Shown in pieces: positions 1-27,402 of a stretch of 64,000 bases of DNA. A model generated the notes under the pieces. It was given only the letters and a program-made list of their open reading frames with translations. It was not told the DNA's origin and made no database searches. Source of the DNA: Marsupella aquatica (Eukaryota; Plantae; Marchantiophyta); assembly GCA_973895155.1 (NCBI GenBank), contig OZ316891.1:21837168-21901167 (forward strand), read 5' to 3'. Positions within the stretch are counted from its first letter, which is position 1. Every line of letters begins with the position of its first letter. The position numbers and the translations under genes are program-made.

Positions 1-220
1 CTTCTGCAATTGGGGGAAATGCCTTTCAGCCGCCATCCAGATAACCCTGATGCACATCCTGATGCTCTTATATGCCCACGACATTATTGTGAGGTCTGTA
101 AGGAGTATCGGGAGGGCATTTGGGATTTTGTCCAATGTCGTAGATGCCCTTGTGCATGGTGTCGTGATGAAGGACCTATAGCAGATAGGCACTTGAGGAG
201 AAGGGTGAGGGGCCGAGACA
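1..220 (+). pseudogene. Fragment of a second EDM2/NSD-type PHD-finger gene, cut by the CACTA-1 terminus at 221
   Basis: ICPRHYCEVC...FVQCRRCPCAWC aligns with ACPLHRCKAC...IVHCARCPTMWH in ORF 10570..11250. The last codons of ORF 10..246 (TLEESEVN) are read from the TIR. The 5' end is outside the window or spliced. Confidence 0.65.
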
Positions 221-249
221 CACTAGAAGAATCCGAGGTGAACTGAGAC

Positions 250-540
250 CGCAATATATGACTCATTTTGGCTCATGTGACTTCATTGTGACTCAACGTG
301 ACTTGACCCACGCTGTGACCCTTGGAGTTGCAAAAGTTGAGACCAAAAAATGGAAGTCACTATTGATACTGGGCTTTGCAACTTGCTTGATACCCATTTG
401 TGACTGATCTGTGACTTTATTGTGGAGTCTAGCCTTGTTTCGACGTGACTGCAATATGACTTCAGCGAGTCACATCGTAAGTCACATACATGACTTACCC
501 GCATTCAACAACGACTAGCGTGTGACTATTTAGTGTCACA
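250..540. repeat. Subterminal short repeats (GTGACT/AGTCAC, both orientations) of CACTA-1
   Basis: Dense TGACT/AGTCA motifs directly inside the TIR at 221. Similar motifs occur at about 16690-16990 and 41400-42015. This layout is typical of CACTA TnpA-binding regions. Confidence 0.7.
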
Positions 541-1075: not shown

Positions 1076-4000
1076 TTATGGATCCTCTATGAACTTGCTT
1101 GGCCATAATACCAAAGAACCTGCAGCATCTCCAAGTGTCTTTTGAGGAGGATCATCATTTGTGTTTGGAATGGGAAGGACAGCTTTAGGTTTCACTAGTA
1201 ATGTGACTAACACTACTGAATAACCTGGGGGAATCCTCTTGCCATGGAACGTTGTGGAACCAACCTGCACTCTGGCAAATCCTACTCGTGTTCCACTCTC
1301 ATCAACAGCTAACAAGCCACTTTGTCCCTCAGCATTAGGTGCTTTCCCCACTTCCACCTTAGATCTTTCTGCCAGCACTGTTCTTGGAGGTTTGTATGAA
1401 ACCTTTGACGTGGCTCTGCTCCCACCAGCAGACTTGCTTCGTGTGCGCATGCTTCCTCTCTTCACAGTAGTGAAGCTAGGCTCAGTAGGTTCCTCTGTTA
1501 GGACTGTCACAGTAGCAGGTTCATCACCTGGGAGTGTCATACCAACTAACTCTTTGGTTGGATTTATCTCAACAAGAGGCACACCTGTCATTGAGAATGA
1601 TACATTCTGCAAATCATTTATCTCTGCAATGGAGTCAAGATCTACATAGCATGAATCTGGCTCAATGGTATCATTGTCATGCTTGCTGATATCCTCATTT
1701 GCCCCAACATTGATATCATCCACTCCCTTGCCAATGTCATCCTCATCCAAACATGGTTGACTGCCCTCTGTCAAACAAGTTGCTTGTACAGACTGCAACT
1801 TTGTTGCCTCTAAATTACAGCGAGTATTTGCCAGGTTCTCATACTTCTTCTCTGTAGCACCTGTCTTATTCTCTATGGACACAACAACCACAATATATGT
1901 TACTGAAAATAACACATTCAACAAACAATGTCAATTCAAACTATACATTTAATAATCATATCCCACACAGTTGTAAAGGCCTTACCTTCAAGCCTACATG
2001 TCGTTGGCATGCCAGAAGAGTGCATCGACTTTGCCACCTCAAGTGGTGATGGTGGAACTCCTGCAGAATTGGAATCAATTTTATCTCTCACCGACACAAC
2101 AGCTTCCATTAATGTCTTGAAGTTCACATGGAACAAGTCAGTCAATGAATTCAAACGTTCATTGATCTCTGGAAGACATGTTTCGACAGCCTTCAAACGA
2201 CCACTTATCTCTGTAAGTGAAGATCCACCTCCCTACATGACACAGGGGTATAGGTTCAATCACTCCATATGAAATGTTGGGCAATATATGCACAATCAAT
2301 GTTATATACAGTGTACACCTGAAATTCAACGCAGGTCATTCAATTACCAATCAGAACTCATATAACTTACATGCTTGGAGGATTCAGATGCACCCTCTTG
2401 AGCCCGGGTGTTCACAATTTCAGCCCTCAACTCTTCTTTTGAAGGGCTTTGCCCCAATTGGGCTTTCTGCACATGCATGGCAAACACAAGTTATCGATCA
2501 ATATTCAGGGAACGTACACTAAAAAACAAAGTTTACATGTAGGGACAGTACACTAAAAAATAGTACATAGTGTAGCATAAATTACATAGCTAGGCCATTC
2601 ATTCTTACCAAACGTTTAGCTGTCGGTGCAGTGCCGGTCCTTCCTGTCAGATTAGGGTTCTGAACACTCAACCTGGCCTCGGTCATCTGTGAACTCTTCT
2701 TTTTTGAAGCATCTGTTACAAAATAAGCTACTAACCTTGCCCACACTTTATCATCACAACTGGCTGGTGGAGGCATATCTGGCTTCTCCCCACCTTCCTT
2801 CCAAGCCTTATGCATTCTCCACCTCTCTTGCTTGATAATTTTACCTGCTGTACTCTCTAGGCAACCTATGTCCACGCCATCATCACTGCCCACATAATTC
2901 CATTTGGCAGCAACATTTTCACATACAGTCTTCCAATCTTTTGGATGCTGTTTTTTAAAATTAATAACACTCACATCTAACCAACGCAATACTTCAGCTT
3001 TCAAATCAGCATGCCATCGGTTCTTGCGAGGACACTCAGCATCCACCCATTGTCTCTCATTCAACTTTACGTTCCCTTTCTTTGTCACCTCCCCTCGTGC
3101 ACTGCTCTCGGTAGTACTGGGCGTTGTATTGGCCACCCCTTCATTCACCCTACCTGGGGTTCTGAAGCCACCTGGGAAAATACAATGCCATTCATGCTTG
3201 AGAACTACATATAGCAGAATGGATGACGGCAACATTCAATGCTTCACTTCAAGAAAAATTCTTCAAACATACATACCTGTAGCTCTGCCTGTAGATGCCT
3301 GTGCAGGGACTGCACTCTGAAATTGTTGCGACCCTGGACCACCTGTCCAGCCTAGTACAGGGGCCGGATGATGTCACTTTCTAGGTATGTGTGTGCAAAC
3401 ATATGTACTGAAAACTAAGTACAAACTGTAGGAAAACAACTGAACATTCACCGACATACCTGTCCCCCTTCCGTGCTGCATCTGCATAGGGGCATTAGTG
3501 AATACTTGAGTCGATGGTTCGACTGTCCAACCTGCACACATACATTTTCTATCATTATACATGTGCAGAGTCCCCCCCACGTGAATGGACTCCACATATA
3601 ATGAGTTCTTCCATTGCTGACAAGATCAGACATTACCTGCTCCTCTTCCAGCGTTTGTAGGTACTGAATTTTGATATCCCTGCCAATTACCTTCACCACC
3701 TTCCCAACCTTGTTCATTCCACGACCCACCACCATCCTCCCAACCTGGTTCAACCCATGTCTGTCCTTGTGGACATTGGAACTGATCATTACTAGCATTT
3801 GCCCAATCAGGTTGGGCAGAATCTGCATGCAATGGCAGGTGGACAGAATTTCATGTTGTCTGAATCCAATACATCCCAAACAATGTCAAAAATTGATATG
3901 CAGTCTGAAATTCAGGAGTGCCATGCCTTCACAAAGAACTGGCATATAGATATATACTCACATCCCCACGGTTGAGGTGGACGTCCATACCCACGAGATT

Positions 4001-4939: not shown

Positions 4940-7900
4940 TCATGGCACAGGCACACTGTTGGCATCTGCATCTCTGAATTCGCCTCCTTCAGCAAATGCA
5001 TCTACCCTTGTCACAGGAATGAAGTCCCCGCTATCATGAACTACAGGCACTTGGTCTGAACGCCGACGATCAAAGGCACTATGAGAGTGTAAATGAAACT
5101 CAAGGTTTGATCCTTCCATCCGGCGTTGCCTGGCCTGTTTATGACACACTACACGCCAACCTGGGGAGTCTTCCACATCCAGGAAGAAAGCTTGCTCCAC
5201 CTGACTAGGAAACACAAATGGCTCAGACCATTCGGGCAATTTCCCTCTGAAATTGGCCAGCAAGAAACCGTCGTTGTCTCTCTTCATGGTAGCCCTGTTA
5301 CCAAGCCAATCCTGCCGCACCCATGAACCTTTCATAAGAATCACAGGACTGGACACCGCCCCATAGTCCAGAGCCCATATGTCAACTAATTCTCCCACAT
5401 ATCCCATCTCCATCCAGGCCCTGTCGTGATTGTGGCTCTGTTGCTCAAATACAGTGATGAGCCCGCAGTCATTCGTCACCCTGTAGGCACTGTCACCATC
5501 CTTCACTCGGAAGTGATTCCCATATGCTCTCATCCGTTTGTAAGTCTTCACTTTCAGGCTAGGGGCATTAGACAGTAGGTAAACATCTGCATCCATGTCT
5601 GGGTGGGTCTCGTGATGCTCTCTAATTGCCACTCTGATCCACTCCATGAAACCTGGAAAAGTTGTTCCTGCAGTGGGATGGGCCGCCTTCAATGACTCAT
5701 ACTCCCTGAACGAACAACCACACAGCATTAGCTTGGGTAAACATGAACAGGCTGAAGGAGAAAACCACACGAACACAACATTTAAGCTCATGAACTGGAT
5801 TATAGCACATGTATGCACTCACTGTATCCAGGGTTCCATCACCACAGTGTTGTGCAATACAAAGTCATGTGCCAAGTCTCTCATAGATATGGTCAGGTTC
5901 TTTGTGGTTGCAGCCCCTTCCAGTACTTCACCTACCACCCCTTCCTCCTCATCAGAATTCCACACCCTGGTCTTCACATGCTCATATTGTGCTATGTATT
6001 CGGTCAGAAATCCCAGAGTCTCATCCTTGATGTAACCTTTAGCCATGCTTGCTTCAGGTTTGTAATATGTTCTCACGTGACCTTTGAGTAGCTTCATGTA
6101 CCGTTCCAAAGGGTACAACCAACGAGCACTCACAGGCCCAAATTGGTGTAGCTCTTCCACAACATGGACAAGTAGGTGGGTCATGACATCAAAAAATGCG
6201 GGAGGAAAATAAATCTCCAGGTCACACAGCACCTGAGCGACATCTTCTGTCAGTTGTGGGAAGTGTGTTTCATCCCAAACCTTCACACAAATACGACGAA
6301 ACACATCACTGAGTCGCATGATCACAGTACGAACAGGCTTCTGCAACAGGCCCCTCAGGCATAAAGGCAACACCTGTTGCATCAACATATGGTAGTCATG
6401 GCTTTTCATACTACCAAGCTTTCTAGTCATGATATGCTTCTTGAAAGCACTGCCATAGTTTGAAGGAACCTTCAAAGAACTCAACCTCTGCACAAATAGT
6501 TCCCACTCTGTGTCTGTCAGAACATAGGGCGCTTGGTACTTCAAGAGCACATCAGCTCTGTGGGCATGTGGCCTCAACCAAAGATGGGGTTTCATTCCCC
6601 TCTGTTCAAGATCCAATCTCACTGAACCAGTGTCTTTCTCTCCACACAAGAATCTGAGTAGACTCTCACAAATATTCTTTTCAATGTGCATAACATCAAT
6701 GTTATGTTTGCTTGGCTCAAACTCCTGCATCGTTGCAATGCAAAAGCGTCAGGAAATGCCTCAAGTTTAGTCTCTCTCTTCGAAATGAATGCACATGCTC
6801 TGAACCAAAACATGTATCCCAATTAGCATCAACTCCAAGAGGCTTACCCTCCAGTACTTGAGCTCCAAGTCCAATATGCTCAGTCTTTTTACACCATATC
6901 GCTTTATTGGATCACTCACTCCATCTTCCCTGCCCCCTCGTTTGATATAGTCATCCCTCAGTGCTCCCCACTGCCTGATCTCCTCTTTGGTCACTCGTGC
7001 CGGGGGTCCACGTTGCTCAATCTCATTGCCAAAGTGTGCAATCAGTGCCTGTCTTTCTCTGTAAGGGTGATCTGTCTTCAGAAAACGACGATGGCCCATG
7101 TATATCACTTTCTGCAGGGCTCTGGAGTACTCACTGGTGACATTGCGCCCACAGATAGTACAAGCACAATATCCTTTTGTTGTTTGGCCTGATATCATCC
7201 CATGGGCTGGGTAGTCAGCTATAGTCAGAATGACAATGGCTCTAAGGATGAATGGGTTTAACCTCCCAAGCCTCTGTAGGACATCATATGTGAGAACTCC
7301 TTCCTCCCAAAGCTTTCTCAATTCCTCCACTAGGGGAGCCAGAAACACATCTATGTTGGCAGATACAGCACTGTCTGGCCCTGGTATCAGTAGGACCATC
7401 AGAACAAAAAATCGCTTTGTAGTCATCCAAGGAGGAAGGTTATAATTCAAAATAGTTACAGGCCAGCATGAAAATTTGTTGTTCTTGTCTCCAAATGGGT
7501 TTACCCCATCCAATGACAGCCCAAGTCTGACATTCCTCGGCTCAGCAGCAAATTCGGGATACATCTCATCTATGAGTTTCCATTGCCTTGAATCTGCAGC
7601 ATGTCGTTGTAGCCCATCATCACTTTTCTTGTCAGTTGCCCAAGTCATCATCTCCGAGATGGCACGGCTTCTGAACATCCGCTGAAGTCTGGGAATGAGT
7701 GGAAAATGACGAAGTACCTTGGCGGGAACCATAGACTTTCCTGAGTTCCGATACCTGTGCTTCCCACACTTAGGGCATGTCAACGATTCTTTATACTCCT
7801 TTCTGAAAAGAACATGCCCATCAGGACAGGCATGGATCGAATCATAGTTCAATCCAAGATTAGATATGCATCTTTTTGCCTCGTACATGTTCTTGGGCAA

Positions 7901-8671
7901 AATATTACCATCTGGTAGCACAGTTGTTCGCAAGAATGCCAACAACTCAGAAACCAAAACGTTGGGGACATTGTGGTTGCCGCAAATGTTCAGGAACATG
8001 ATGACAAATCCCAGTTTAGAACATTTGCTACCGGGGTACAAAGACTTCCTGCCTTCCTGTATTTGCAGGGGAGAGCCAAACATCCCATCATGCCCAGGGG
8101 TTTCCTGCCCTATCTCAAACTCATCAAGAGGCTCTTCGACAGGGGGCACACTTGCATCTGCAGCCGTATCCTCTTCATTGTCCAGCCCATCATGAAATGC
8201 ATCCAAGTCTTGGAAGATGTCTCTCACCATCTCTTCCACATGAATTCCTTCGTCACGTGGTGCTGCCTGAGCACCATCCCGTTGGAGAGCTGACAACCCA
8301 CAGAGACCAGCTACAACATTTTCAAATGCACCAGGCAGAACCTCACTTGCCCGTCTTGCAGCATTGGCAGCATCAAATTCTAACCTCCACTCCTCGTCGG
8401 AAGAATCTTCCTCTGCAGGATCATTCCAAACTCGATGTCGTGGATCTCTTCCATGAACCGCGATATGCCGCCAAACCTCATTCAGACCCCTGGTACGGGA
8501 TCCTTGGCAGATTGCACAAGGACATCTCATCCTACTGGCTCCTGAAAGTCTGGTTCGTAACCTTTCACGCTGCCAAAGCTTATTATCATGGCGTGATATC
8601 CTTGTGGGATGATGCAAAGGCAGTGCCTGTGCCCTGGGCTGGGTCTGGGGAGGGTGGTGACCAGGGTGCAT
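4940..8671 (-). CDS. tnpD: CACTA TnpD transposase, 3 exons (8671-6848, 6724-5823, 5705-4940), 1163 aa, apparently intact
   Basis: Transposase-associated Zn motif CPCAIC...H; IHACPDGHVLF...CPKCG; EPRNVRLGLSLDGVNPF; ADYPA; HNIDVMHIEKN; MKSHDYH; FPPAFFDVMTHL; WLYPLERYM; EPFVFPSQVEQAFF. Both introns are GT-AG and join in frame with no stops. Confidence 0.93.
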
Positions 8672-9104
8672 TGTAACAGGCTGGGAGCTCTGCAGTCATG
8701 GACAGCAGTGAACAAGGATGCCTAATGGTGGTATTTGTGTTCCATATATCCCTGACTGTATCTGCCAAAAGAGTTAACATAACGTGTACTAAATTCTCAC
8801 AAACCCTAAACCACCCCAAAAGAAAAAAACAGGTTCGCAAGTAGTGTACCTATTGTCAAGTGAATGACACAAAATTTCTAAATGTTGGAGGGTGTCACCA
8901 CCTCCTCCGCTGTCCTCAAATGTACCGCCTCTGCATGTACGTTTACAGTGACACCCCCAGGCAGCAGGAAACAACAATCCGCCAACAGTAAAATAAGCCC
9001 AACTGCCACCAACCATAACAAGGTACATTAGTTCAAAGATCACATTTATTTCAATGATCTGATTTATACAAAAAAACTTGTGTCCAAACTGATGCTACTA
9101 CTCC

Positions 9105-9977
9105 TCACTCTGATTCAGAATCGCTAATGACCCATTCCTCACTTGTTGTCTCATAGTCCTCTCTGTAAGGATCCTGACCCTTCCGTGGCCAGGCCTCAAA
9201 AAGATCATAGTCCATTGGGTTTTGACGCTTCCCAGCTGCTACTGATTCCACAAGCCAAGCATATGAAACCACAAACACATTATGGGACATGACATAAAAG
9301 CGAATGTCTCCCTTCCCAAACTTGCGGCAGGCTTTGGGATATGACTTAGTAATGACATGAGTGGTGTCCTCTGTTATATTCTCCTCCACTGTCCCACCTA
9401 GGTCAAGCACTGTGGACTTGTACACTTTGCACTTAACCTCTCCAATTCCCGCCTCCACAAATACCATGCTCAGCCCTTTCAGAATGGGGGTTGGTTGCTT
9501 CGTCTCCTCAGCCAACATACTCTTCAGCCTTGTAGAGCTCTGTCCTTTGTTGAGTACAGGTCCATATTGGAGATCAGCAAGCCGTGCCTTTGCTTCCCAG
9601 ACTTCTTGTTCAGCCCAAGCTGATGCAGTAGCTTCTTCATCCTCCCACAACTCATATTGCTCAGTATCCTGTACAATCTTATGTGCTATGGAATCTGTGA
9701 TCCAAGAGGCCTCAACTACTTTTAGGCCTTGCTTAGTAATTGCAGAATTCATGTAGGACCATGACCACTTCTTTATCACTGATAGCCATGTCCCTGCAAC
9801 AACATGTGTAGTCTCTGGAGTGATGTCCTGAACTACAGTGCCATGGAGCTCAGAGAATCGTTTCTGTACAGTTGGCCAATGCACTTTGGTCAACCCATGC
9901 TGGCCATGGACCAAAATCGCTCTGACCCCTGTAAACACTGCTGGGTGGTCACACTTTCTACGTTTACCAGGCTCCAT
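9105..9977 (-). CDS. Intronless tandem-BRCT protein (DNA polymerase lambda-type BRCT x2), CACTA-1 cargo
   Basis: Two internal repeats with the BRCT signature: VFTGV...LHGTVVQDITPETTHVV...VVEASWITDSI...QYEL and ILKGL...LGGTVEENITEDTTHVI...VVSYAWLVESV...DYDL. N-terminal KRRK may be an NLS. Confidence 0.85.
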   Translation of the reverse strand: MEPGKRRKCDHPAVFTGVRAILVHGQHGLTKVHWPTVQKRFSELHGTVVQDITPETTHVVAGTWLSVIKKWSWSYMNSAITKQGLKVVEASWITDSIAHKIVQDTEQYELWEDEEATASAWAEQEVWEAKARLADLQYGPVLNKGQSSTRLKSMLAEETKQPTPILKGLSMVFVEAGIGEVKCKVYKSTVLDLGGTVEENITEDTTHVITKSYPKACRKFGKGDIRFYVMSHNVFVVSYAWLVESVAAGKRQNPMDYDLFEAWPRKGQDPYREDYETTSEEWVISDSESE

Positions 9978-10569
9978 GTACACACACCCTACGTGATGAC
10001 AGTGAATTTTGGAAGAATGGGTTCACCTGACAATACAAGGACAACAAAATTCCTGCTTTTTGAGTTGATCTGGCCCACTGGTGCTCAGGTCCGATTTTGA
10101 TAGGTACAAGGGATATGTGAACAATACGTACTAGGCACCTGCACGGATGCAGGACATTGTTTGAATATATACTACAAAATCCATATCCGTGGTGAAATGA
10201 AGTGCAACCAACTTGTCATGGCACATACATATTTTGTTGTAAAGGAGGATACATTCAATGACAAACTTATAGGGCAATTTGATTAATTGCATGCCTGATA
10301 ATTTATACGCTTACAACTTAGAAGTCCTGTTTTAATTTAGCAGTGTGATGAAAGTGTTTATGAAAATGACCACTCAGCCTAAATACTTCCAAGAAGGCTT
10401 GTAAGGATAAGTTTGTATAGGCATGTACCCAGCCACTGACGCCAGAGCACAAGATAAGTGCTGCCTATATAAACTCGCCTACCCAACTCCTTTTCAAAAT
10501 TGGAATCTCTGCAATCTCAAAAAATAGTACATCCACATCAGGTGCACTGTGCATGTACAATGTTCAGCT

Positions 10570-11250
10570 TCACAGCCAAGATATGTGATCTCTCACAGGA
10601 GTGCGCGAGGTAGGATCAATGGCATGGCGATGACAATAAAATATCCATCGATCAACACCATGTGCAGAGTGATCATAGATTTCTCTGTCACAAGCATAAC
10701 CCTCTGCTTGATGATCTTTCAGGCAATGATAGTGCCACATAGTGGGACACCTAGCACAGTGGACTATGTCAGTCCAGTAGTCATCATCATGCTCACCACA
10801 TGCCTTGCACCTATGAAGTGGGCAAGCTGTGGCATGAGCAGGCAAACACTCAAAACAGAAAAATCTCACACAAAAACGGTCTGGACATTTCCTAACATTT
10901 GCTGCAGCATCAACAGAGCCCTCATAGGACCCCAACTTCCCACACTGTGCACACTTAGCCTGCTTCTCCAAACAATCAGTGCACATCCAGTCTCCCTGGT
11001 GTGTTGACGGGAGGCCCACCCCTGGACAGTTGTTTTCTGCAGCAAGGTCAGACTCCGGGTTGAGGTGGAAATGCCTCATGCAAGGGCCCTCACAAATGAC
11101 CAGGCCCCCACCATCGTCACAAATGGCACAACAATGAGCTGCCTTCTGGAAAATCTGACTTGCAGAGAAGTTAGTAGCATCTGCCCCAAGTACACCTGTG
11201 TTTCTCACCTCTGTCACACGCTTTTTGGCTTGAATTTTAGGCCGTGCCAT
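10570..11250 (-). CDS. Intronless EDM2-like composite triple-PHD-finger protein, CACTA-1 cargo
   Basis: CAICDDGG-x-CEGPCMRHFH...C...CTDC; CAQCGKLGS...C-x4-C...CFEC; CPLHRCKAC...CARCP...HYHCL...FYCHRHAID...TPVRDHI follows the plant EDM2 PHD module residue by residue, as I recall that sequence. No other EDM2 domains are present. Confidence 0.87.
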   Translation of the reverse strand: MARPKIQAKKRVTEVRNTGVLGADATNFSASQIFQKAAHCCAICDDGGGLVICEGPCMRHFHLNPESDLAAENNCPGVGLPSTHQGDWMCTDCLEKQAKCAQCGKLGSYEGSVDAAANVRKCPDRFCVRFFCFECLPAHATACPLHRCKACGEHDDDYWTDIVHCARCPTMWHYHCLKDHQAEGYACDREIYDHSAHGVDRWIFYCHRHAIDPTSRTPVRDHISWL

Positions 11251-11261
11251 GCCTGCGCATG

Positions 11262-11405
11262 AGATAGACTCTACAATTTAGCAGACTGCACAGAAAGTAA
11301 TATATATTTAGCATTTAAGGTACAAAGGCATTTAGATAGACTCTACAATTTAGCAGACTGCACAGAAAGTAAAATATATTTAGCATTTAAGGTACAAAGG
11401 CATTT
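11262..11405. repeat. 72-bp tandem duplication just upstream of the PHD ORF
   Basis: AGATAGACTCTACAATTTAGCAG...AAAGGCATTT occurs at 11262-11333 and 11334-11405 with one mismatch. Confidence 0.95.
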
Positions 11406-12020
11406 GCTACTGCAATGAATTGGAATGGCCACACAAGGATGCAGAGCACACATACTTTTGGTATGTTGAGCCCACACACAAAACTGATCCCCTAATACAA
11501 TTTCTCCACCAACACCTCAATTTTAATTGTGGCTATGATTCACCAAAGGAGATCTGCAACAACATTTCATGCATTTGAATCACATACAATAGTCGTGACA
11601 TGTAAAACAGGCATTCTTCGAAGAGGATTGGTATGAAGCAGTGTCATAAGGGTTGAAATTTATACATCCTAAATAGGTTATGATAGTGGCTGAGACAAAT
11701 AAGTGAGGCATAAATCATTTTGCATATTATCACATGGCCCATTAATTCATTCAACGTTGCAATGTTCACCAGGTTAAAGCAGTCATGAAAGCAGTCTTTC
11801 AATAGAGACTTTTATGCGAGTTTGCTAGCCTCTTAAATTAGGATATTTTGCTTAGTGCAGGCATAATAGGATATAAGTTATATACTGTTGACCCTAAACC
11901 CTGGACCCAAAATTGCTCATACATCAAAATTTTAAGTAAATATCCTCTGTGTTGAAGTCAGAGTGTTAAGCTATAGGTCAATGGTATCTGGTCTGTGCAT
12001 GCGGTGTGACAAGTGGTCCT

Positions 12021-12470
12021 CTAGAGCATGTGATCCAAACATGTGTAGACACCAAAGTCACCGGTGGTGGGGTCTAGGAGGGCAGGACAAGTGACATCAC
12101 CAGGCACACTGCAGGATGGCGAGTGGTTCCAAATGATACATTGTGCTCTATGCAAAAATCGGCATCCAAGAGAACGGTCATCCAATTCTGGGCCAGAAGC
12201 CCTACAGGCAGGACAGTCATATTGGCAACTGTGTACACACCCTTGGCACCTAATTTGTGGCGGGTCATGTACAAGAGACACAAATACCAAGGATGTCGGG
12301 AAGGGTACTGAAGCAAGTAGAGGCCGGCTGTAGTTGTTCCTGGAAACAACAGGGTACTCAAAGTACCATGCAGACTGGGCTGGAAGGATCCCAAGTCTGA
12401 CATACTCAAGGCGCAACATCTCTGCCTTGCGTGCAAGTCGCACATGTTCAGCGTTGCGGGTCCTCACCAT
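12021..12470 (-). CDS. Cys/His-rich small protein of unknown family, putative CACTA-1 cargo
   Basis: 149-aa ATG-initiated ORF on the same strand as the other cargo; CQGCVHSCQYDCPAC...C...H...C...H...C...C...C..H. No family recognised. Confidence 0.45.
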   Translation of the reverse strand: MVRTRNAEHVRLARKAEMLRLEYVRLGILPAQSAWYFEYPVVSRNNYSRPLLASVPFPTSLVFVSLVHDPPQIRCQGCVHSCQYDCPACRASGPELDDRSLGCRFLHRAQCIIWNHSPSCSVPGDVTCPALLDPTTGDFGVYTCLDHML

Positions 12471-15442
12471 AAGTGTTGCTTTTGTTGTGATGTCCTCTGT
12501 TCACGTCCTTTGATGAGCAAGGTGAGCAGGAGGTCGACTTGCCTCGCCAACAGCAACCACCTAAACTAATCAGTTCCCACTCAACTACAGGTCATAGTAT
12601 ACACATAGCATGAAACGTGCATAGTACATATTTGATTCTGAGTTTATGAGTTTCCTAAGACAAAGAGCTTGGTGATAAACCCATATTCTCGATGGACATG
12701 TATATCAATCGTATTAAAATCCTGTTTTTTCATCCAGAAAGACCGAAAGTCTCACCTTGCAGGTTGCAGCAGAGAGAAAATTCACTGGTTGTCGTGTTGT
12801 GCAAGTGAACCTCCACTGATGCCCCCGGTGTAGCCCCTCAGATGCAGGTGACACTTACCAACTCCCAAGTTGCCTGGTCTAACAGAAAATGCTTATATCT
12901 TCAGAACTTTATAGAGCAAGTACATGATCACATACTTCTGGATCTATTCATATTTGGAACTCTTGCCAACTACAACTCCCATTATGCACAAGCTCACATC
13001 AACAGAGAAAGATACAGAATGCATACTTACTAGGCTCTAAGCACCTTCACTACCTTGTTGAACCCAGTCCTGAAGTCTTTTCAGCGTGTTTGTTGTGCTG
13101 TCTCCTTTGGCACCCAACACCTTAGTCCTTGATGTAACAGAATGCAATTTTACAAGTTAGATGCTTTGGAACCTTCTATGGTCTTAGCTGAATTGATGTC
13201 ATCGTAAGTGGTGAAAGACAAGGAAGACGAAAGCTGGTTGAAGAGCTGTAGACAACACACTAGCATGAAGTGCTTCAACCAATCCACTGCCAAACGGAAC
13301 TCTTACACAGTCACATTCTTTCAGTAAACAGAAACTCAGTCAAACTTTATAATCAAAGTACAGACTCTGAAGGACCAAAGGAGGATGTTGTGAGTTTCTC
13401 TGTTGTTTAATGTGTTACCCTTCTAGTTTCGAAGTTAGCAAATGCTGAATAATGTGTCTACCAGATCTTCGAAAAGAAGCCCACCACAATTAAGAACTTT
13501 GGTATCTGGGTGAGGTATCAGAGTCATACAGGTTATCCCAACATGTAGAAGAAATATCGTGAAACCACATTGAACATCGCTGTAGAGCAGATGTATGATG
13601 AGATGGCTTCTTGTCATAGAGTTCGGTTCCCTTGCATCCAGATCATCAAGACTACGACAGTCCCTGTCTCTCTGTGCAAGCGAGAAAGTACCAAGCAGTT
13701 CCATGATTCAAAGATCAAGTTCCCCTTGACGTACCGCAAGATTCAACCTCCATCGCGAAAGCTAAAGACGACTTACAAGGCCACCAAGCCCAACACATTT
13801 GTTTGAGTTTCTAGGTCAGGATGCTTAATATAAGGAAATTCAATTTTCACTTCGTTCCCAGCTTCTACTAATTGAATATACACGAGATGGAAGCAAGAAG
13901 ATAAGCCACAATCTAGCATCTTAGCCAAACACATTCGTCCCGACAAAGCAAAACTACAATCACACAGTGCGAGTTGTGTCTGCACCGGCACCCCCAGTGA
14001 GACTGATCAGCATTTGGACTGCATCATTGTCTAGAGCTAGCAGTGGAAGGAATCAACATAGCTAGCAGTGGAAGGTGCAGTGGAGATAGCATGGGGACAG
14101 GGAAGGAAATGCAGGTTCCTTAAGCATAAATTTCCAAAAATGGAACAACAGGAAATGAAGAATAGGCACTGAAGCGGTCAACTAGACAAACGTTGTAACA
14201 AGGCAGCAAGCATTGGATTAAGAAGAAGCAAGGTTTCATCAGCAGAAGCAAGGTTTCATCAACAATGGCATTGTGAGACAAACCACTCCTTACAAATTTC
14301 TACAGACATCCTCCCCACTTGCAGCTTCTCGGCCAGGCTGGATTTCTTGTAAGACAGGTTTCTTGTAAGAAAGATTTCTTGTTTGGTGAGGAAAGATCAA
14401 AAAGCAACTGATCAATGCCTTCTTGTCATCTAGAAGAGCTGGATGCAGCCCTGTCTCACATTTAATGTTAAACTGAATGAAAGACATTATGCGCATGCAC
14501 AAAAGAAAGACATGAATATAATTAAGGTAGGTTTTAAGGAGCGGAGTCAGCAGTCAGACTTAGAAAGTTCAAATTGAAGCGCCATTAGTTTGGCGTGGTC
14601 AAGAGTAAATAAATGTTGGTCAGGGATACTCACCTCTTTTGAATGTATTACTGACTCAGCTAAGCCCAGCTAGACAGAAGTCACTCAGACCCACAAAAAA
14701 GTGAAGATCCACCTCCAAGCCGGAGCTCTATCACTTCAGTAGAGCAGCTTCTGGACGGAACCAACTCTAATCAGCCCCACAGAACACAAATGTTAAGGCT
14801 CCAAGTCAGAGCTCACTTCAGCCGAGGTGGACATCGCAGCTAGACCATTCAGTATAGGCAGTATGGAGCCTGAGACTACGCTCATTGTTCAGAATTGAGG
14901 TGATGAAAGTGAGTTGGCATCAGTGGATACAATGAGAGGGGAAAAAATTCTGACCAAATCACACCTCTATAATCAGAGAGGTTCTATTTCCAGGGAACTC
15001 ATTCATTGACCAGAGTAATATGGCCCACATTTAATTAGACTATGATAGACTCTTCCTCTGCAGACTCAAACTCGAGGAACCCCCACGGATGCCAGCATAT
15101 ACACGAGCTAGAAGCAAGAACACAAGTCGCAATCTAGCATCTTGGCCAAACACATTCTTCCTGGCGATAGTAACTGCAAGCAAGGGGGAGACAGGGAGAA
15201 CAAGGAGAATAGGGAGGCAACTCACAATGGAGCTAGGTAGCTCATGATCAAGCAACTTGCAATTGCAGCAACAGTAGTCTTAGTAGCAAGCGATTGAGCT
15301 CCAGGAAATGACAAACCCGCAGCTGAGTCCTCAACTGACAAAATGTTCGCCACTCGACCCTCCTTCCAACTGCAACCGCCAGATAGTAGGAATAAGATAG
15401 AGAGGTTGCAGCCTTCTCAGTGATCCAATAGCACCTCTCTTA

Positions 15443-15705
15443 CCACCTCCGCTCTTAGCACATCCGCTCGCACCTCCGCTCTCAGCACCTCCTTTGGCAC
15501 CTGAGCCGCTCTCAGCACCTCCGCTCGCACCTCCGCTCTCAGCACCTCCTTTGGCACCTGAGCCGCTCTCAGCACCTCCGCTCGCACCTCCGCTTGCACC
15601 ACCTCCTTTGGCACCTGAGCCGCTCTCAGCACCTCCGCTCGCACCTCCGCTCGCACCACCTCCTTTGGCACCTGAGCCGCTCTCAGCACCTCTGCTCGCA
15701 CCGCC
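15443..15705. repeat. GC-rich minisatellite of 12/18-bp modules (GCACCTCCGCTC / GCACCTGAGCCGCTCTCA)
   Basis: Directly visible tandem units; it generates low-complexity ORFs in several frames. Confidence 0.9.
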
Positions 15706-17748
15706 GCCCAAACTGAAGCTACGTAGCAATCCTCAGCAGTGTGTGACAGAAGCACTCCACTCCAGCTCCACTCCGCTCGAGCTCCACTCCAGCTGCTCTC
15801 CGCTCGTAGCTCCTCGGCCAGACCGGCGGCCAGAGCAGCTCCCAAATTGCAGCTCCTGCCCGCCCACAGCTCCTCCCAGTCCTAGAGCTCGTCGTCCACT
15901 GCAGCTCACCTCTCCACTCCGCAAGCCGGTCGCCCTCTCAGCTTGAATGCTCTAGAGCTTTGAAGGTAAACCTTCAAGCTCCAAGCACAAAACTCCCCTA
16001 CGCGAAGGAACTGCCCCGATCACGAAGCACACTCCCCACTTTGTGAGACCACGCACAATGTGACAACCTTCAGGCACGACGAATGTCCCCGTAATGGACA
16101 AGTGAGTTTTTCTGAAACAAAACCCTCCGAGTTCCCACGCACATTGAACTGAACTTTGCATTCTGCTGGCGTGTTTAAACCCTAAACAAAACCCGCGCAC
16201 CCTAAACTCGTGTCCAAAGGCACACTCCCGCACAAAGCATACCTTAACACTTAGTGACACTTAGTGAACCAAACCCAATGAGCCTCGACCACTTTGCGTT
16301 GACATGAGCCGTTGATACACATGTTAGTACCCTAAAGCAAATTGGACACGACACTTTGTGAGCAAAGATTAAATGAACGCAACTGTAACCTCTTAGAACG
16401 CAACTGTAAATTAACCCTTACACATGCCACTTAGGGAGGGTGGACAAAGAATGGGGGCCAGACACTACTTTAGCCCTGAATTGAAAATGATATCACCCCA
16501 ATATTCTTGTCAAAGTTGCCCATGAACTCTAAGGAATCCATTGAGCAGCATAAGACTTACTATTATAGAGGCAAGTACTCCCATGCACGTTTAATTAGGC
16601 TAGCTAGGATAACTAGCTACAATGCTCTTGACATGAAGACATTTAACTAGTTCTGCAACCCTAAACCCCCATTCCTTCTATGTGCACCTAGTGCTCCCGA
16701 CTCCGCAAGTTGCAAGTCAAGGGTTGTAAATGGAACATTCCGTGATGTCTAGAGTGCATGTAATCCTTCTTGCACTCTATTTCAGAATGCCGTAATGGAG
16801 AGTAGCTTATTCAACTTACATATGACTGCCCTACTAGTGTTACAATTGCTACTTTATCAGAAGTTGTAGGAATGACTTTCACAAATATCCCCCAAAAATC
16901 AGTTGATAAAATGTAACAACAATGACTCCCCTAAACTTGGAGTCATGTATTTTTGAAAGTCTCCCTAAAGTCACAAAGCATAGGGTCTCAAAAGGGGACG
17001 TTTTCTTCTAGTGGAGATATTAGGATCATATGTCGTAAGAAAACTAATTTTCGTGATGTGTTGGTCCGCAAATATGGTGAAGTATGGTTTAACAGTATTT
17101 TAGTTTCACCTGAACCTTTCTTAATACCCACTACCCTTGTTACTAGAATTATCATTTTGATTTTAGTGTAGAACTTATGAGCATGCAAAGTTAACTTCAT
17201 AAGAGCGAACATGCTCCGTGGATGAAAGCACAACATCATAACCCTTTTTTCCATACCTACGGACTATTGCCTCCTTGGCAGCTACCTTGGGTCGAGTTAC
17301 AAAACGAATATCTCCCAACGAGAAAGAAACGGGAGGCTCATCGGAGGGAAGTTTGTTGAGATCCATCTCAATACAAGATAAAAATTGTGCAAGCCCAATC
17401 CTGCCTGTAAACTACATAAGGGTATACAATTGGCTCTATTGAATTTAATACCGCAGTTGCAAATGTTTCTCCAAAGTGAAAAGTCATATGCTGGCGCATT
17501 ATCTCTTTTTGGAGTACATGAATTTTAATAAGGAAAGGATTAGGGAGAGGAAGAATAGGTACTGGTCTGGGCATTATCGTACTATCAAATATTCCATCCA
17601 ACTAATTTTCATTCTAATGACAAGAGATAGAATCATTCAACAAAAAGATCATCCATTTCAAACAAATATCATGCATTGAGTTAACTCTAAGTATATACAT
17701 GCAGATGTTTATCTTAATAGGTTGATCTTCTTTTGAATGAAAATACTA

Positions 17749-18011: not shown

Positions 18012-18231
18012 GTTATATTCATAGAAGAGATCATCAAATCCAATGGATTTTTAAGACTTCACAACTTAGTTGATGAAAAATGGGGAGTGAGGGGAGAGAG
18101 CCCATCTCCTCTTTATTTATAATGCTCACACCTCAAGCACACGGATCAAGCATGGCACACGGATGGAAGCCATGTGTCACACATCCAAGGCAAGTAAGTG
18201 TGCTAGTACTATAGTTACGTGAGTGGAGCAA

Positions 18232-18520
18232 CTGTAGACAGTACACTATAGTATGCACACTGTAGATCGTACACTATAGCATGCATACTGTAGATCGTAC
18301 ACTGTAACATGCACATTGTAGATTGTACACTGTAGCATGCACACTGTAGATCGTACACTGTAGCATGTACACTGTAGCATGCACACTGTAGATCGTACAC
18401 TGTAGGTCTTGCACTGTAGCATGCACACTGTAGATCGAACAATATAGTATGCATACTGTAGACCGTGTACTGTAGCATGCACACTGTAGGTTGTGCACTG
18501 TAGCATGCACACTATAGACT
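18232..18520. repeat. 14-bp-unit minisatellite (CACTGTAGCATGCA / CACTGTAGATCGTA)
   Basis: About 20 contiguous 14-bp units of two mostly alternating types. Confidence 0.93.
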
Positions 18521-18666
18521 GCATATGCGAGAATTTAAACTACTATCCTATACTACTAAGCTATACTTAGGAGGAACTTACTAAACAAAGAATCCCCACG
18601 ACAACGGCCATGCATGCTGATCGCTATACATGTGAACTCGATGTAAGTGCTCTAGCTACAACTTGT

Positions 18667-20756: not shown

Positions 20757-21469
20757 CGCTCCGCCCTTGCCCTCGTTGCTCTCCTCAGGCCTGAATGAAC
20801 TGAATCCGCCTTGTCCGCGCTCGGCAATCCATAAGGATTCAAAATATTGGGCTTTGCGATTCGTTTCGCATCGCAGTTTGCGATGCATCGGCCTTCGCAA
20901 AAAGCTTCGCAAATTCTATCTTTGCGAAGCTTCAAGATTCGCAAAAGCCTTTGCTATTTGGTTTTGCCATAACCCCCGTCTCGCATGCGTATTTGATGTG
21001 TTGTTAGGGATACTAAGGGGGCTTATGAACATTAAATGGGGTAGATGTAGAGGATTATGTTGCATTTTAGTGGGATGTGATGAGATAAGGATTGGGGGGG
21101 TTAGAAAATTGAAGGAGTTATATTGCAGGGTAAGAGGAGGGGGTTTGGCCTGGTTAGGGGAGGGTTTCTTTTGTGAAGGTTGGGCTTAGATTGGCTTAGA
21201 TACGAGGGGTTTTATGTTTTGGGTTTGCAGGGGGGTTTTATTTATGAAGGTTGGGGTTATATGTATTGGAGGGTAAGAGCTAGGAGGGGTTTTATGTTTT
21301 GGGTTTTGGGGTTTAGGCCAACTTAGGAGGGTTTGAAAGAGAGGTTTCAGTTTTATAGTATCTTGGGTTACTTTTATGGTATCTTAGGAGGGTAACCAAG
21401 AGGGGTGGCATATAATTATGGTAGAGAGAAGCATAGGATGGTTGAAGGGAATTGACCATTTAGGTTTTT

Positions 21470-22530
21470 GCTAACTTCATTGGCTTACGCTTTTAGAGTT
21501 CCCAAGGGTCTATGGTGGGTTTTTATTGCATGACACTCACCTTTCACTTGAAGCGGGATGAGGTTTTGGTTTTTATGCTAACAATTGAGGGAAATCCCAT
21601 GTAATCATGATCCAGTGCAGGATCATCACTGCTTCCTCAACTTTTGTCTAATGCATATGCATTGTGGGAACCCGGACATCTAAAAGGTATATTTAAACAT
21701 GTATGTTAGCAGGGTTTGATAAAGAGATTGTTCATAAACCTTGCCCTTCTTTGTTGTGCAAGAATATCTATATGCACATGTTTGGGGGTCTACAACTTGA
21801 GAGAAGCTAATGGCTATCCAAACTTACTTTTTTGTTTCCAGTATTTTCCTTGTGCTTCTAGATTCAGCTCATGTTCAATGAGCCACACGACCTACAGGCA
21901 CTATTGAGTCCGGATCTCATTCAGGTAATTATTGTCCAACTTCATTCTGGGCTTAGGCCTTTAGAGTTTTCCCAGGGGTCTAGGGTGGGTTTTTATTGCA
22001 TGACACTCACCTTTCACTCGAGGGGGGATAAGGGTTTAGGGTTTAGGGTTTTATGCTAACAATTGAGGGGAAAACCCATGTAATCATGATACAACGCAGG
22101 GCCAACACTACTACCTCAACTTTTGTCTAATGCATATGCATTGTGGGAACCCGGGCATCTAAAAGGTATAACATCATGTATACAGTCAATGTTGTTAGTA
22201 CAGATTTTTATGCTTGCCCTTCTTTGTTGTGCCATGATATATGTGGGTAAATGTCTAAGATTCCACAACTTGACGGCTGCTAATTACCATCCAAACTTAC
22301 ATTTTGTTTCCAGTATTTTCCTCCTACTTCTAGATTTGGCAAATGTTCCAAAAGCCACGTGACCTATAGGCACTGTTGAGCCCGGGTCATTCAGGTAATA
22401 ATCTAACCTCACTTAGGACATAGGGTATTACAATTTTCCCAAAGGTTATAATGTGGTTTCTTCTTGCATGACACTCACCTTAATTTGGGTTTCATGCTAA
22501 CAAATATAAAAGGGTAATAAAACCCCATGT
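21470..22530. repeat. Diverged tandem repeat, about 470-bp period (about 2.3 copies), upstream of CACTA-2 TnpD
   Basis: TTGCATGACACTCACCT recurs near 21526, 21996 and 22464; GTGGGAACCCGG.CATCTAAAAGGTATA recurs near 21664 and 22143. Confidence 0.85.
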
Positions 22531-22635: not shown

Positions 22636-25600
22636 ATGTCCTCTTCCTCTGAACTATCCAGTAGTGAGTACTCCTCCGATGACGATATACCCCCTCCTCC
22701 TCAGCCCGAGGTTACTGGTCCTCGTGGTCCACCCCGAAGACTTTGTGACTGCACCAGATGTGTGGGCCAAATTTCTCAAAAATCTTATGTGTGTGCTCAA
22801 CATATTGAGAGATATGGACGTCATAGAGGTCTTACTCCCGGGGCTTCTTCATCCCATATGGTAAGTTTGTTTCAATTGATTGCCGTTCTTTACTGTTATT
22901 TTTAGAGGTGAATCAATGTTTACACATATGGTTTACACATTTGGTTGTTTGTGGGTGTTTGAATGGAATAGGGATCCAGTATGCGTAGATTGGTGACACC
23001 ACCACCCTATGTCCCATCACAAGGAGTTTTAGATGCTATAGGCAATGCACTTTCACAAGCCTTGGGTTTGGGAATTAGTACCAGTCATGGGATAGAAGGG
23101 GAACACCCTCATGTGCCCACTGAGACACGAAGACCCCGGTCCAGGCCCCAATCCAACAGGAGGCCACGAGCACCCAATGACCCATCCAGAACACTAGTTC
23201 AGGGTAGGTGGGGTGTTTGTTCATTCACTGGCAAGTGTGCCTCTATCATCAAGGATTGGGAACCTATCACTCTTGGCTTGCCTTATTTTACAGATTTTGA
23301 TGAGGAGATTGTGGTTTGGGGTAGACGTTGGATTGTGAAAACTTCCACACTTGGAGAGAGACATGGATATGGAGTATTTGCTTGTGAGGATATCATCATG
23401 GATGAGGAGGGTGGGTCAAGTGTTCGTGGTAGAGAGGGTCCTACTTTGTTCCCATACGGTGGACCCATCTACAAGAGAAGACATTGGAACATGATCCTTG
23501 CACAACATCCTGAGTGGAAAACATATGCTCTAGAGATGGATACTTTTGATGGTAGCACTAGAAGGTATAGTGAGCAGCGGGTGATAGATGGTGATCCCAT
23601 ACGTAATGGGAATATTGCTGGTTTCATAAATAGTACTGTGGGGACTCGGCCCAAGCGTAGGGCCAATTGTGAGTGGGTTTTTACTGATGGTCCAATGCCG
23701 GCACCATATGGCACGACATATCATAAGGACCATTGCTTAGTTCTTGCTACTAGGACCATTAGAGCAGGAGATGAGTTATTCACACACTATGAGTGGGATT
23801 AGGAAATCATGTCCTTTATCCTCTTGCACCTATTTTGGACTTCCCATTTACTATTATATATATGGCCTTTGGGCTCATTTTGGAGTAATAAGGTTTTAGC
23901 TCATGCATTTACTTTAATTCTTAATGTCTTGAATGAATGGTGTTAAGTCTATTTTAATTTGTTGTACTTGGTCAAATATACATGAGGAGGTTTTTTGGTT
24001 GTAATGTGCATAGAATGCGCAACCATCTCAACAAATGTTACCACGAAGGTTGAGAGCAACATATCGGGAGATGGGTATGCCAGAAGAGGGAGAACCATCA
24101 GAGGGTGATTCCTCATCAAGTAATGATGTAGGTGGTGCTGATGAGGAAGCCGCACCTCGGACTGATGACCAGGTCATGCATGATCAAGATAGAGCCATGG
24201 ATGACTTCATGGTTGATTGGTTTGGTGCCGATGTTGAGGATGATGTGCCTCACATTGGTCATGAGGTTGGCCCTTCAAATGACCCACGGCCACAACATAC
24301 TCCAGAGGGACAACAACAATGGAAAGAGGCAGAGGAACATGCTCGAACACCTATTTTTGAGGGTGCTCGGTTGAGCCGTCTTTCTGCCATATTGGGGCTC
24401 TTGAACATTCAAGCCAAACACAAGACAAGCAATTCTATCAGACATATTTGAATATTGTCATGACTTGATGTTACCCTCGGAGAATGTGTTGCCAGGGACC
24501 TGGAAGGATGCAAAGAAGGTTCTCTCATCCATTGGTATGGATTACCATATTATTCATGCCTGTGTGAATGATTGCATGTTATTTCACGGGGATACAGCCC
24601 ATATCACAGAATGCACAGTGTGTCATGAGCCACGGTATGAGCCAAACATGCTAACCCAGAAGGTACCAAGGAAAGCAGTTCATTGGTTCCCCATAATTCC
24701 TCGCTTGTTGCACATGTATAGATGTTCTGACTTGGCCGAGTTGATGGTATGGCACAAGAAACATCGTTCGGAGCCCGGTGTCATGCGATTACCAATTGAC
24801 TCTCCTGCTCATAAACATGTGGAATCAACATGGCCAGATTTTGAGCGTGACCCTCGGCATGTGCGACTTGGGTTGGCATCAGATGGAGTTAGCCCTCATT
24901 CACTTGGAGGGAAGGGGAGACCTACATCGGTCTGGCCTGTGGTTCTCATGAATTACAACCTTCCACCATGGTTGTCCATGAAAAAGGGTTTTTTGTTGCT
25001 ATCTTTGATTATCCCAGGGCCAAAGAAGGTGAAGAACATGGACACCTATTTGACATTACTGGTTCAGGAACTCCAGAAATTATGGGAAGGAGTATGGGCA
25101 TATGATGGTCGAAAGACTACAGGGGGTACCCCATGGGTTTTCAAACTCAAAGGGGTTTGTATGTGGACCATGCATGACTACCCAGGTAAGAACTTTGTTG
25201 TTTAAATGCATCATATTCTAATGCATGGTATCCCCTCATTTCCATGTGCTAATCCTAACATAATGTGTGTTTATATGACCAGGATTTGGCTTTGTGAGTG
25301 GGTTGCAAACCCAAGGCTACAAGGCTTGCTCCACTTGTGGCCCAAGCCTTGGTGATGTAGCCAAGTATTCATCACATCTTCGCAAGATTGTTTATCTTGG
25401 GCATACAAAGTTTCTTCCAATGGGACATCAGATGAGGCGTGACCCACTACTATTTTCCTCTATTGATATGCCCTTTGGTGACGAGCGTGATGTACCTGAG
25501 CCAACAACTTTTACACACTGGAAAGACATGGCTGCAAGAGTGGCAGACCCAGAGGATCCCATGCAATTTGACGGTAGTGGCTTGACAAGGTGGAGTATAT

Positions 25601-27402
25601 TAACCACTTTGCCCTATTGGGGTGAGTTGAAGATCCGCCATCTATTAGACCCCATGCACATTGAGGGAAATGTGGGAAAGGCTTTGATAAAGGCTTTCTA
25701 TGGAGAGAAAGACACTAACTTCAGGGAGGCTTGTGAGGATCTTGAGATGCATCTAGACGTGTGGGTCATAAGTGATCCTATCACAGGGATCGAGCATCGA
25801 CCTTCAGCTCCATGGGTGCTTCCTATTGGCCAGAGAAGGGAGTTTCAGAATCGCATAGGAGACATGCGGTTTCCTACTGGTTATGGTGCCAATCTCCGAA
25901 AGGCCTTTGGGATGGAGGACAATCATAAGTGGCCAAGGTATCTCAAGACACATGACTACCATAGGTTATTGCAGCACATATTGCCTGTGGCCATAATAGG
26001 TTTGGCAAGTGAAGAAGTGCAAGATGCCCTTTGGTCATTGGGAAAACTATTGAGATGGGTATGCTCTAAGGAGATATATACTGATGAGATCCCTGGGATG
26101 GAGGTTTTGGCAGCAGAGGTGGTATGCAAGTTGGAGAAGGCCCTTCCTCCTTCCTTTTTTGACTGTCAAGTGCATTTACTTGTTCATCTTGTTCATGAGG
26201 TGGCCATTGCAGGTCCTGTGCATTGTCGGTGGATATATTGGCTAGAACGATACATGGCAGTGTTAAAAGGTTATGTACGTAACCGTGCACGGGTTGAGGG
26301 AAGCATGGCTACAGGATACTTAGCAGCTGAGAGTATGTTCTATTGTAGTAACATATTGGCCACAATTGATTGTACCTCTCCCCGTACTTGGGTAGAGGAG
26401 AGGGAAGATGAAGAGGATCGTTTAACAGGTGCTAGGAAAACTCGCATGTTGACACCAGTGGAGGTGAAACAACTGACCACATTCATGTTGAGTAACAGCA
26501 CTATCATGGAAGAATGGAGGGATTTCTATGAGGATGCCAAAAGTAACAGCACAAGACCAAGGATTTTTCCAAAGTACCTTGACTATATGAAGGAGAAGTT
26601 AGTTGAGGTGGATGACATGGTGGTCAGGGGAGAGAGTGTATTACATTTTCCGGCTATCACAGATGATGTTCGTACCATTGTTCATGGTCCCTTGAGAGTG
26701 GTTACAACAAGGACAGCAATGTGGACACAAGGAAGACATTTCAAGTGATCTCCATCTACCTTAGTAACCTTTGATTTGAATCACTTGGTTTAATTTAATT
26801 CATTTATAATACAAACACGTATATTGAAGAGGCAGATTCTTGGTGTGTTCAATTAATTGGAATATGTTTGTGTCTATTTTTGTGTAACATATCCTTATGG
26901 TTTGATGGATTTTAGGATTTCTTCCCTTGATGAGAAGAGGGGTCGTACCTTTGATTGTGGAGTTCAAGGACAATTCTCTCAAGATTCCCGCAGCAGTCGC
27001 CATGACACAAATATTATTCGAGATGTTGTGCCACATTATGGAAAGGTAGAAGAGATTCTAGTGATATCTTATGATGCACAATCAAAGTTTGAAGAGTATG
27101 TCTTCAAGTGCAAGTGGTTCAAAGTGAACCTTGCAGGTAACAATCCTACTGTGGTTCAAGATGAGTGTGGATTTACACGACTGAAGACGTCTGCCACTAG
27201 TTTCCAGCCATCTCATTGGCAAACATCAGAGCCGTTCACTTTTCCAAGTCATGTGGAACAATGTTTCTATATTCCATACCCCCCAAACCCAGAGGAATGG
27301 TCACTTGTCATCACATATGTGCCACGGTCTCGTTCAATCGTTGGGGAAAAGCCTGATATTCTGGTTGTGTCCCAACCTGAAGATGATGAGGACCAAGTTT
27401 GA
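22636..27402 (+). pseudogene. tnpD: CACTA-2 TnpD transposase (exons 22636-22860, 24014-25185, ~25283-26744, ~26916-27402), frameshifted near 24440
   Basis: Exon 1 Zn motif CDCTRC...HIERYG; IHACVNDC...CTVC; DPRHVRLGLASDGVSP; MHDYPG; RHLLDPMHIEGN; LKTHDYH; PPSFFDCQVHL; WIYWLERYM; FKCKWF; EPFTFPSHVEQCFY. The frame changes between ORFs 24035..24451 and 24465..25205. Confidence 0.9.
22972..23802 (+). CDS. SET-domain (lysine methyltransferase-fold) terminal exon inside TnpD intron 1
   Basis: SET motifs in order: VKTS...HGYGVFACEDI, FPYGG, YALEM, VIDG...GNIAGFINS, ANCEWV, VLATRTIRAGDELFTHY*. Acceptor AG at 22970-22971 is in phase with exon 22636-22860. Confidence 0.87.
   Translation, partial: GSSMRRLVTPPPYVPSQGVLDAIGNALSQALGLGISTSHGIEGEHPHVPTETRRPRSRPQSNRRPRAPNDPSRTLVQGRWGVCSFTGKCASIIKDWEPITLGLPYFTDFDEEIVVWGRRWIVKTSTLGERHGYGVFACEDIIMDEEGGSSVRGREGPTLFPYGGPIYKRRHWNMILAQHPEWKTYALEMDTFDGSTRRYSEQRVIDGDPIRNGNIAGFINSTVGTRPKRRANCEWVFTDGPMPAPYGTTYHKDHCLVLATRTIRAGDELFTHYEWD

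Follow-up and report, generated by a model that had tools for sequence, protein, structure and literature searches.

The window analysed here, the whole 64,000-nucleotide stretch of a Marsupella aquatica contig, carries on its minus strand (10570..11250) a PHD-only gene of 226 amino acids, which lies inside a CACTA-type transposon and is very probably a maintained, element-borne cassette of the EDM2 type. A fuller reading, in which this intact cargo is likely an old capture from the host and likely a reader of the histone H3 tail that shields the chromatin of the element from silencing readers, has in our judgement about an even chance of being right.

The PHD-only gene and its product

The gene was delineated by its open frame, Pfam, profile searches and a structural model. 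Its ATG at 11250 and stop codon at 10572-10570 enclose exactly the segment named in the original prediction, the frame is uninterrupted and encodes 22 Cys and 16 His, and a frame of this length arose in only 1 of 20,000 base shuffles. As had been predicted, the protein consists of three PHD-type fingers and no other domain: Pfam returned PHD-1st_NSD, PHD_NSD and PHDvar_NSD in that order and no further domain, each model scoring below its curated cut-off (23.8 against 27, 17.8 against 23.9 and 23.6 against 27 bits, respectively). Only 40 residues precede finger 1 (C41-C93; 10972..11130, minus strand; Pfam and alignment), which carries the distal Cys75 of the EDM2 type and Trp88. The alignment also shows that acidic residues 45, 46 and 54 and the aromatic residue 88 are retained, and these presumably have the H3-binding role of their counterparts in AIRE-type fingers. 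Finger 2, beginning at C100 (10811..10953, minus strand; Pfam and alignment), has Cys132 where EDM2 has His and is followed by a linker of seven residues, and finger 3 (C148-H209; 10624..10809, minus strand) is of the PHDvar type according to Pfam, fold matching and alignment. An EDM2-type tail, TPxRDHI, was aligned at 10573..10602 (minus strand). The motif TPVRDHI, predicted to end the protein, is indeed present, but the true C-terminus, TPVRDHISWL, lies three residues beyond it.

The predicted structure, based on 86 aligned sequences, reached a pLDDT of 89.7 and a pTM of 0.84 and superseded a poor earlier model from six sequences (pLDDT 45). Strand assignments for residues 2 and 6-7 of the model were discarded, as these columns of the alignment had been made to accommodate unrelated EDM2 residues. 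Foldseek gave three matches at E<=0.001, each a JADE1 PZP chain of low TM-score, and the top VIA fold match was NSD2 (9gbf; Z 5.0, rmsd 2.6, 75 residues), a weak match in that Z is under 8. The closest solved sequence in a profile comparison with the PDB was likewise NSD2, at residues 647-802 (E 1e-10). These are not the C-terminal fingers of NSD2. The fold and sequence matches of the cassette are PHD readers of H3; no EDM2 entry was found in PDB searches with the PHD-only protein.

Relatives and phylogeny of the cassette

Among 123 candidates, five relatives of 217-245 amino acids were recovered that share 37-82% identity and the same C-terminal motif; all five were predicted on short contigs (1-6 kb), on which a transposon setting or a spliced fusion would not be visible. 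A profile search of 1.84 billion proteins gave 564 matches at E<=0.001, with the top five rows ranging from 166 to 245 amino acids. Nine of the ten top-row names looked up were plant proteins of EDM2 or PHD type, from liverworts, a lycophyte and angiosperms, and a search for longer forms returned the EDM2-like protein of a rice relative (E 1e-15) followed by two NSD proteins. The best named hits are thus EDM2-like and fall within the EDM2/NSD family, as the original prediction had anticipated.

Phylogenetic analysis placed eight family rows in a clade with 100/100 support and a long stem. This careful tree of 31 rows was built without P0002, P0156, P0007 and 26 EDM2-type rows of a 60-row tree that was run in quick mode only. 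Support for grouping the PHD-only family with EDM2 was 76/93. In AU tests of the sister group, canonical EDM2 (p 0.25), bryophyte paralogs (0.52) and NSD-like proteins (0.365) were all retained, and short angiosperm-type rows were rejected (p 0.014). Individual residues favour EDM2. The distal Cys75 after an FH motif is shared by 14 of the 15 family rows and by 65 of the 67 EDM2-type rows, and the TPxRDH tail pattern is found in 100 of 157 proteins and in none of five NSD-like ones. Other characters set the family apart. For example, Cys replaces His at position 132 in 13 of 15 family rows (the other two being gaps), in contrast to His in 64 of 67 EDM2-type rows, and His39 is a further family-specific change. 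The short linker between fingers 2 and 3, already noticed in the original prediction, is seven residues long in all 13 family rows with both Cys, compared with an EDM2-type median of 27 (range 12-43). The 12 residues before finger 1 contain on average 1.2 acidic residues in the family (n=12) and 4.2 in EDM2-type proteins (n=64).

Host annotations likewise include short EDM2-like proteins, for instance in Marchantia (P0061, 280 amino acids) and Miscanthus (287 amino acids), so the PHD-only form is not unique to the element family; what is new here is the mobility of the cassette and its distinct clade. A scan of metagenomes produced 11 loci (from 221 stretches); no member of the PHD-only family and no transposase match was among them.

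Comparison with EDM2 and other known systems

According to published descriptions, EDM2 has acidic regions as well as a methyltransferase-like (ELP) domain at its C-terminus (PMC7529245), its cassette is counted as two and a half PHDs (PMC7529245, PMC7472560) and its fingers bind H3K9me2 (PMC7472560). The PHD-only protein shares with Arabidopsis EDM2 the distal Cys75, the ligand pattern and the TPxRDHI tail, and is 28-34% identical to proteins named EDM2-like. It differs in having no N-terminal RFD (Pfam DNMT1-RFD is present in P0006 and P0019 and absent here), no methyltransferase-like (ELP) domain and no acidic stretch before finger 1, in the deletion of a 20-residue segment of finger 2, in the His-to-Cys ligand change in that finger and the linker of 7 rather than 27 residues, and in its intronless coding part and transposon location. 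The proposal that the gene is a version of EDM2 stands for the cassette, by virtue of Cys75, the tail and the best named hits, but the protein falls outside EDM2 proper. The description of EDM2 as an anti-silencing factor holds in part, since it is reported to lower marks at COPIA4 but to raise them at Mu1 (PMC7529245).

Bryophyte EDM2-like paralogs (Calypogeia P0015, Riccia P0018, Marchantia P0020, P0026 and P0061, and Physcomitrium P0109) resemble the PHD-only protein in stopping soon after the tail, as in the case of P0061, and a common clade is compatible with the AU test given above. In contrast to it, they retain His132 and the long linker, mostly have long N-terminal parts and are annotated host genes. 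The PHD cluster of NSD1/2/3 is similar in that NSD2 provides both the best solved sequence match and the best, although weak, fold match, but neither the distal Cys75 loop nor the tail is found in NSD-like rows (0 of 5), and the PHD-only protein lacks SET and PWWP domains.

Among transposon proteins, VANC of VANDAL/Mutator elements is described as an element-encoded anti-silencing protein that removes DNA methylation in a sequence-specific manner (PMC5735166), and its probable derivation from MAIN-like proteins offers a precedent for the capture of a host chromatin factor (PMC13547354). The PHD-only protein is also an element-encoded accessory, probably from a host chromatin factor; unlike VANC, it is a cassette of zinc fingers carried by a CACTA element, known from sequence alone, and Pfam found no VANC-like domain in it. 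Pack-CACTA elements are reported to capture host fragments (PMC13317346), and the present case is similar in having host-derived sequence within CACTA ends, but the PHD-only gene is whole, conserved and located next to transposase frames.

The CACTA element

The location of the gene within a transposon, as originally predicted, was confirmed by a pattern search for CACTA ends and by the transposase frames between them. The left end (221..250, plus strand) consists of an 11-bp inverted repeat and a shared 7-mer, with a GTGAC/GTCAC cluster extending to about 600, and the right end (16984..17013, minus strand) has the identical 11-mer and 7-mer at equal spacing. The end pattern matched twice in the window, and two matches occurred in none of 100 shuffles. 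The element spans approximately 16.8 kb with many frames. The PHD gene is followed downstream, all on one strand, by a tandem-BRCT cargo frame (9105..9977), a TnpD-type transposase split over three frames (4940..8695) and a TnpA-type piece (2582..3235), all identified with Pfam. Transposase_21 (E 2e-70) and DUF4218 (E 5e-28) are the main matches of TnpD, whose DUF4216 match is under the cut-off, as is that of the TnpA piece to Transposase_24 (E 1.5e-4). The best solved match of the BRCT frame is the BRCA1 BRCT (E ~0.007), and its product might recognise phosphorylated repair signals. On the same strand, upstream of the PHD gene, is a Cys/His-rich frame of 149 amino acids (12021..12470), recognised from its sequence and relatives, which could be assigned to no Pfam family; its product begins with a basic Val-Arg-Thr-Arg and has two relatives at 54-55% identity. 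A captured piece of RPL18A (13462..13806, plus strand; Pfam and translation) contains an in-frame stop and shows a one-base deletion variant among contigs; it is a decaying passenger, in contrast to the PHD-only gene.

The triplets adjacent to the ends (ACA left, GAG right) do not match as a 3-bp target-site duplication, and GAG also occurs 3 nt further out at the left flank. Because the adjacent triplets differ, the element is designated CACTA-type and a single clean insertion is unproven. Subterminal motifs are uneven, with 13 GTGAC/GTCAC clustered in positions 1-600 and only isolated single motifs at the right end. A fragment of a second PHD-only family lies at window positions 1-186 (plus strand), with 59% identity over 61 amino acids to P0156 (226 amino acids, E 5e-20). 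From this sequence match, the element appears to have landed inside this other PHD-only gene, cut near the left CACTA end; comparison by eye of the right-flank translation after 17013 with the C-terminus of P0156 gave no match. At 13955-14667, 711 bases are skipped in contigs of runs X1 and X5 and are thus missing from many copies.

Elsewhere in the window, a second CACTA-type element has a SET-domain frame (22972-23802, plus strand; Pfam E 6e-6, over the cut-off) upstream of its transposase (24405-27402); this frame had no PDB sequence match and, judged by its Pfam assignment, is more chromatin cargo. Retroelement frames at 32210-34105 (minus) and 52750-54645 (plus) show a weak, below-cut-off match to a C5 DNA-methylase (E 0.028) between their protease-like and reverse-transcriptase-like parts. 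An inverted duplication of 8,259 bases with 99.7% identity (29050-37308 and 49547-57805) is either a recent event or an assembly artefact. A canonical-looking PHD finger is encoded at 59681-59800 (plus strand) downstream of a Gypsy-like integrase region. Further repeats include a 14-bp tandem array (18175-18569), GC-rich repeats of 57 bp (15392-15733) and repeats of about 470 bp (21457-22481).

Copies and maintenance of the frame

Window positions 9000-12700 were present in 10 of 12 listed sequencing runs under three organism labels, at least half of the words being found in five; none of the runs containing this segment is recorded as RNA. Over 861 bases covering the PHD gene, 86, 1510, 90 and 37 contigs aligned from four runs. 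These contigs range from more than 99% to less than 90% alike, and run X1 includes two alternative contigs of similar depth, a spread that fits a multi-copy family with subfamilies. Its position inside CACTA ends, together with the many divergent contigs, rules out that the gene is the last (3') exon of an ordinary single-copy host gene. The PHD gene also had a higher summed contig depth, but such sums are unsuited for ranking parts of the element.

None of the ten listed indels among these contigs falls within the 681-base frame; all lie in roughly three clusters within the 180 bases that flank it. Of the best 40 of 102 variant rows, 37 lie within the frame; they comprise 16 synonymous and 21 replacement changes, reduced to 15 and 20 when one triple change is merged. 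Varying the transition weight gives a pN/pS of 0.36-0.49 (p 0.003-0.029), for rows that are the best-supported 40 of 102, selected and non-independent, with copies and organisms mixed. Among the changes in these best 40 rows, Cys codons are unaffected. A variant that seemed to create a stop at codon 134 was rejected, being one of three changes on one contig that together read Ser. The lack of listed indels in the frame and the pN/pS of approximately 0.36-0.49 indicate that the gene is maintained cargo. CpG in the frame is 0.25, against 0.23-0.40 in the other element frames and 0.65 in the RPL18A piece, and this depletion weakly suggests long residence in the element.

Proposed role and alternative explanations

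An acceptor-like AG, a candidate splice acceptor predicted from the sequence, lies 2 nt before the ATG (11253..11255, minus strand) and is preceded by an AT-rich stretch. The BRCT and TnpD frames, which share its strand, have similar AGs ahead of them. The original prediction of no introns thus applies to the coding part, but a 5' intron before the ATG is possible. Alternative splicing from a common leader is known from CACTA elements. An in-frame stop nine codons upstream means that a longer PHD protein would need splicing. Of 15 family N-termini, 11 apparently start with Met-Ala-Arg, and this conservation favours it as the true start. A repeat search also found a 72-bp tandem duplication (99% identical) just upstream of the gene at 11262..11405.

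In the proposed scenario, a cassette that is likely an old capture from an EDM2-like host gene would be translated from its own ATG after a 5' leader is spliced to the acceptor 2 nt upstream, its basic N-terminus would mediate nuclear entry and finger 1 would bind the H3 tail. The protein could then occupy marked nucleosomes or bridge them to other element proteins, and it would not replace EDM2 in its complex. Without the catalytic and RFD parts it would occupy or bridge, being unable to catalyse, and since the acidic stretch before finger 1 is missing, its histone specificity may differ from that of EDM2 or be lost. We prefer shielding over targeting or decoy roles by analogy only.

Residues 2-10 (11221..11247, minus strand) are basic and align in register with residues 1-9 of histone H3 (sequence from PMC3022755), as a possible mimic or nuclear signal, with five of nine residues identical and a BLOSUM score of 20. 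This score was reached in 18 of 134,879 background windows, in none of 2,756 windows after Met and in none of 152 N-termini; among 4,670 basic windows, the rate of an H3-like match was 0.24%. In the H3 register, the 15 family N-termini have A1 in 11, R2 in 13, K4 in 11, A or S7 in 10 and K9 in 6, and at positions 13-22 no residue occurs in more than five. It should be noted that the comparison was made after the pattern had been noticed, with an internal Met chosen in 3 of 15 and P0010 and P0016 omitted for having no Met in register. The shuffle p for the window protein was 0.008, or 0.07 with the first two residues fixed, a setting in which just 4 of 15 family N-termini gave p <0.05. A complex model of residues 2-31 against 34-226, made without alignments and with no peptides, scored 0.02. 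A Met-Ala-Arg-x-Lys start is also seen in a separate short EDM2-like group (L004, L005; P0034, P0042, P0059), possibly by convergence.

These observations raise the possibility, which we consider improbable though the strongest of the alternatives, of an H3 mimic fused to a reader, whose N-terminus would bind its own finger 1 (in auto-inhibition or head-to-tail chains) or soak up H3K4 and H3K9 writers and readers. The match to H3, its low background rates and the retention of at least four identities in 9 of 15 family N-termini above variable later positions agree with it, as does the M-A-R-x-K start of P0034, P0042 and P0059, and the AU test (p 0.014) speaks against joining the family to the short angiosperm-type rows. 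The test was nonetheless after the fact and lost strength with two residues fixed, six of the 15 N-termini have two or fewer identities, including relatives at 75% and 53% identity, and a basic nuclear signal after Met-Ala would look nearly the same; Met-Ala-Arg also starts liverwort EDM2-like proteins. By the same token, we regard as rather doubtful the broader picture of a CACTA-borne H3-tail mimic joined to a stolen EDM2 reader, serving as a virus-style decoy for H3K4/H3K9 writers or a head-to-tail chromatin polymer within a wider chromatin arsenal (PHD, BRCT, SET) of the lineage. Somewhat less probable still is that the cassette is an adaptor steering TnpA/TnpD to particular chromatin, perhaps with the BRCT protein or spliced to another element exon. 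The acceptor-like AGs before the PHD, BRCT and TnpD frames on a single strand would allow this, PHD fingers are reported in Rehavkus transposases (PMC6446971), a PHD-like finger sits behind the Gypsy integrase region of the same window and the left flank of the element is a piece of another PHD gene; the prevalent Met-Ala-Arg start, on the other hand, fits a separate protein.

The original prediction had included an interaction with the host complex ASI1-AIPP1-EDM2, which is reported to promote distal polyadenylation over heterochromatic introns (PMC4980392, PMC7472560), and by joining or competing with it the PHD-only protein might let the long element transcript evade early polyadenylation. 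The EDM2-type diagnostic residues and the length of the element with its many frames are consistent with this idea, which we nevertheless judge unlikely: the EDM2 parts outside the fingers are all absent, as is the finger 2 segment, the effect of EDM2 on transposon marks goes both ways (PMC7529245), the tree expresses no preference among canonical EDM2, bryophyte paralogs and NSD-like proteins as donor, and short EDM2-like proteins are annotated host genes too. In addition, a mapping of the AIPP1-binding region was not found in a literature search whose scope did not extend to the primary papers, and the presence of the complex in this organism is an assumption. Least probable is a neutral passenger fragment copied with the element. 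Although the decaying RPL18A piece and known Pack-CACTA capture (PMC13317346) provide precedents, the ligands and the length are fixed in a conserved family whose members share as little as 37% identity, and the frame has a pN/pS below 0.5 and no listed indels. Shielding of the element remains our preferred reading.

Significance

Judged from its sequence, the gene is real and encodes a putative transposon-borne reader that is apparently undescribed and a variant of transposon-captured chromatin factors; a literature search covering sources other than most subscription journals, Repbase and supplementary annotation tables found no CACTA-borne EDM2-type PHD gene. As a natural minimal EDM2 cassette of 226 amino acids, it makes cassette specificity easy to test. 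Few anti-silencing proteins of plant transposons have been described, and the target of VANC is DNA sequence; a mobile and conserved family of histone readers, if true, would represent a different strategy.
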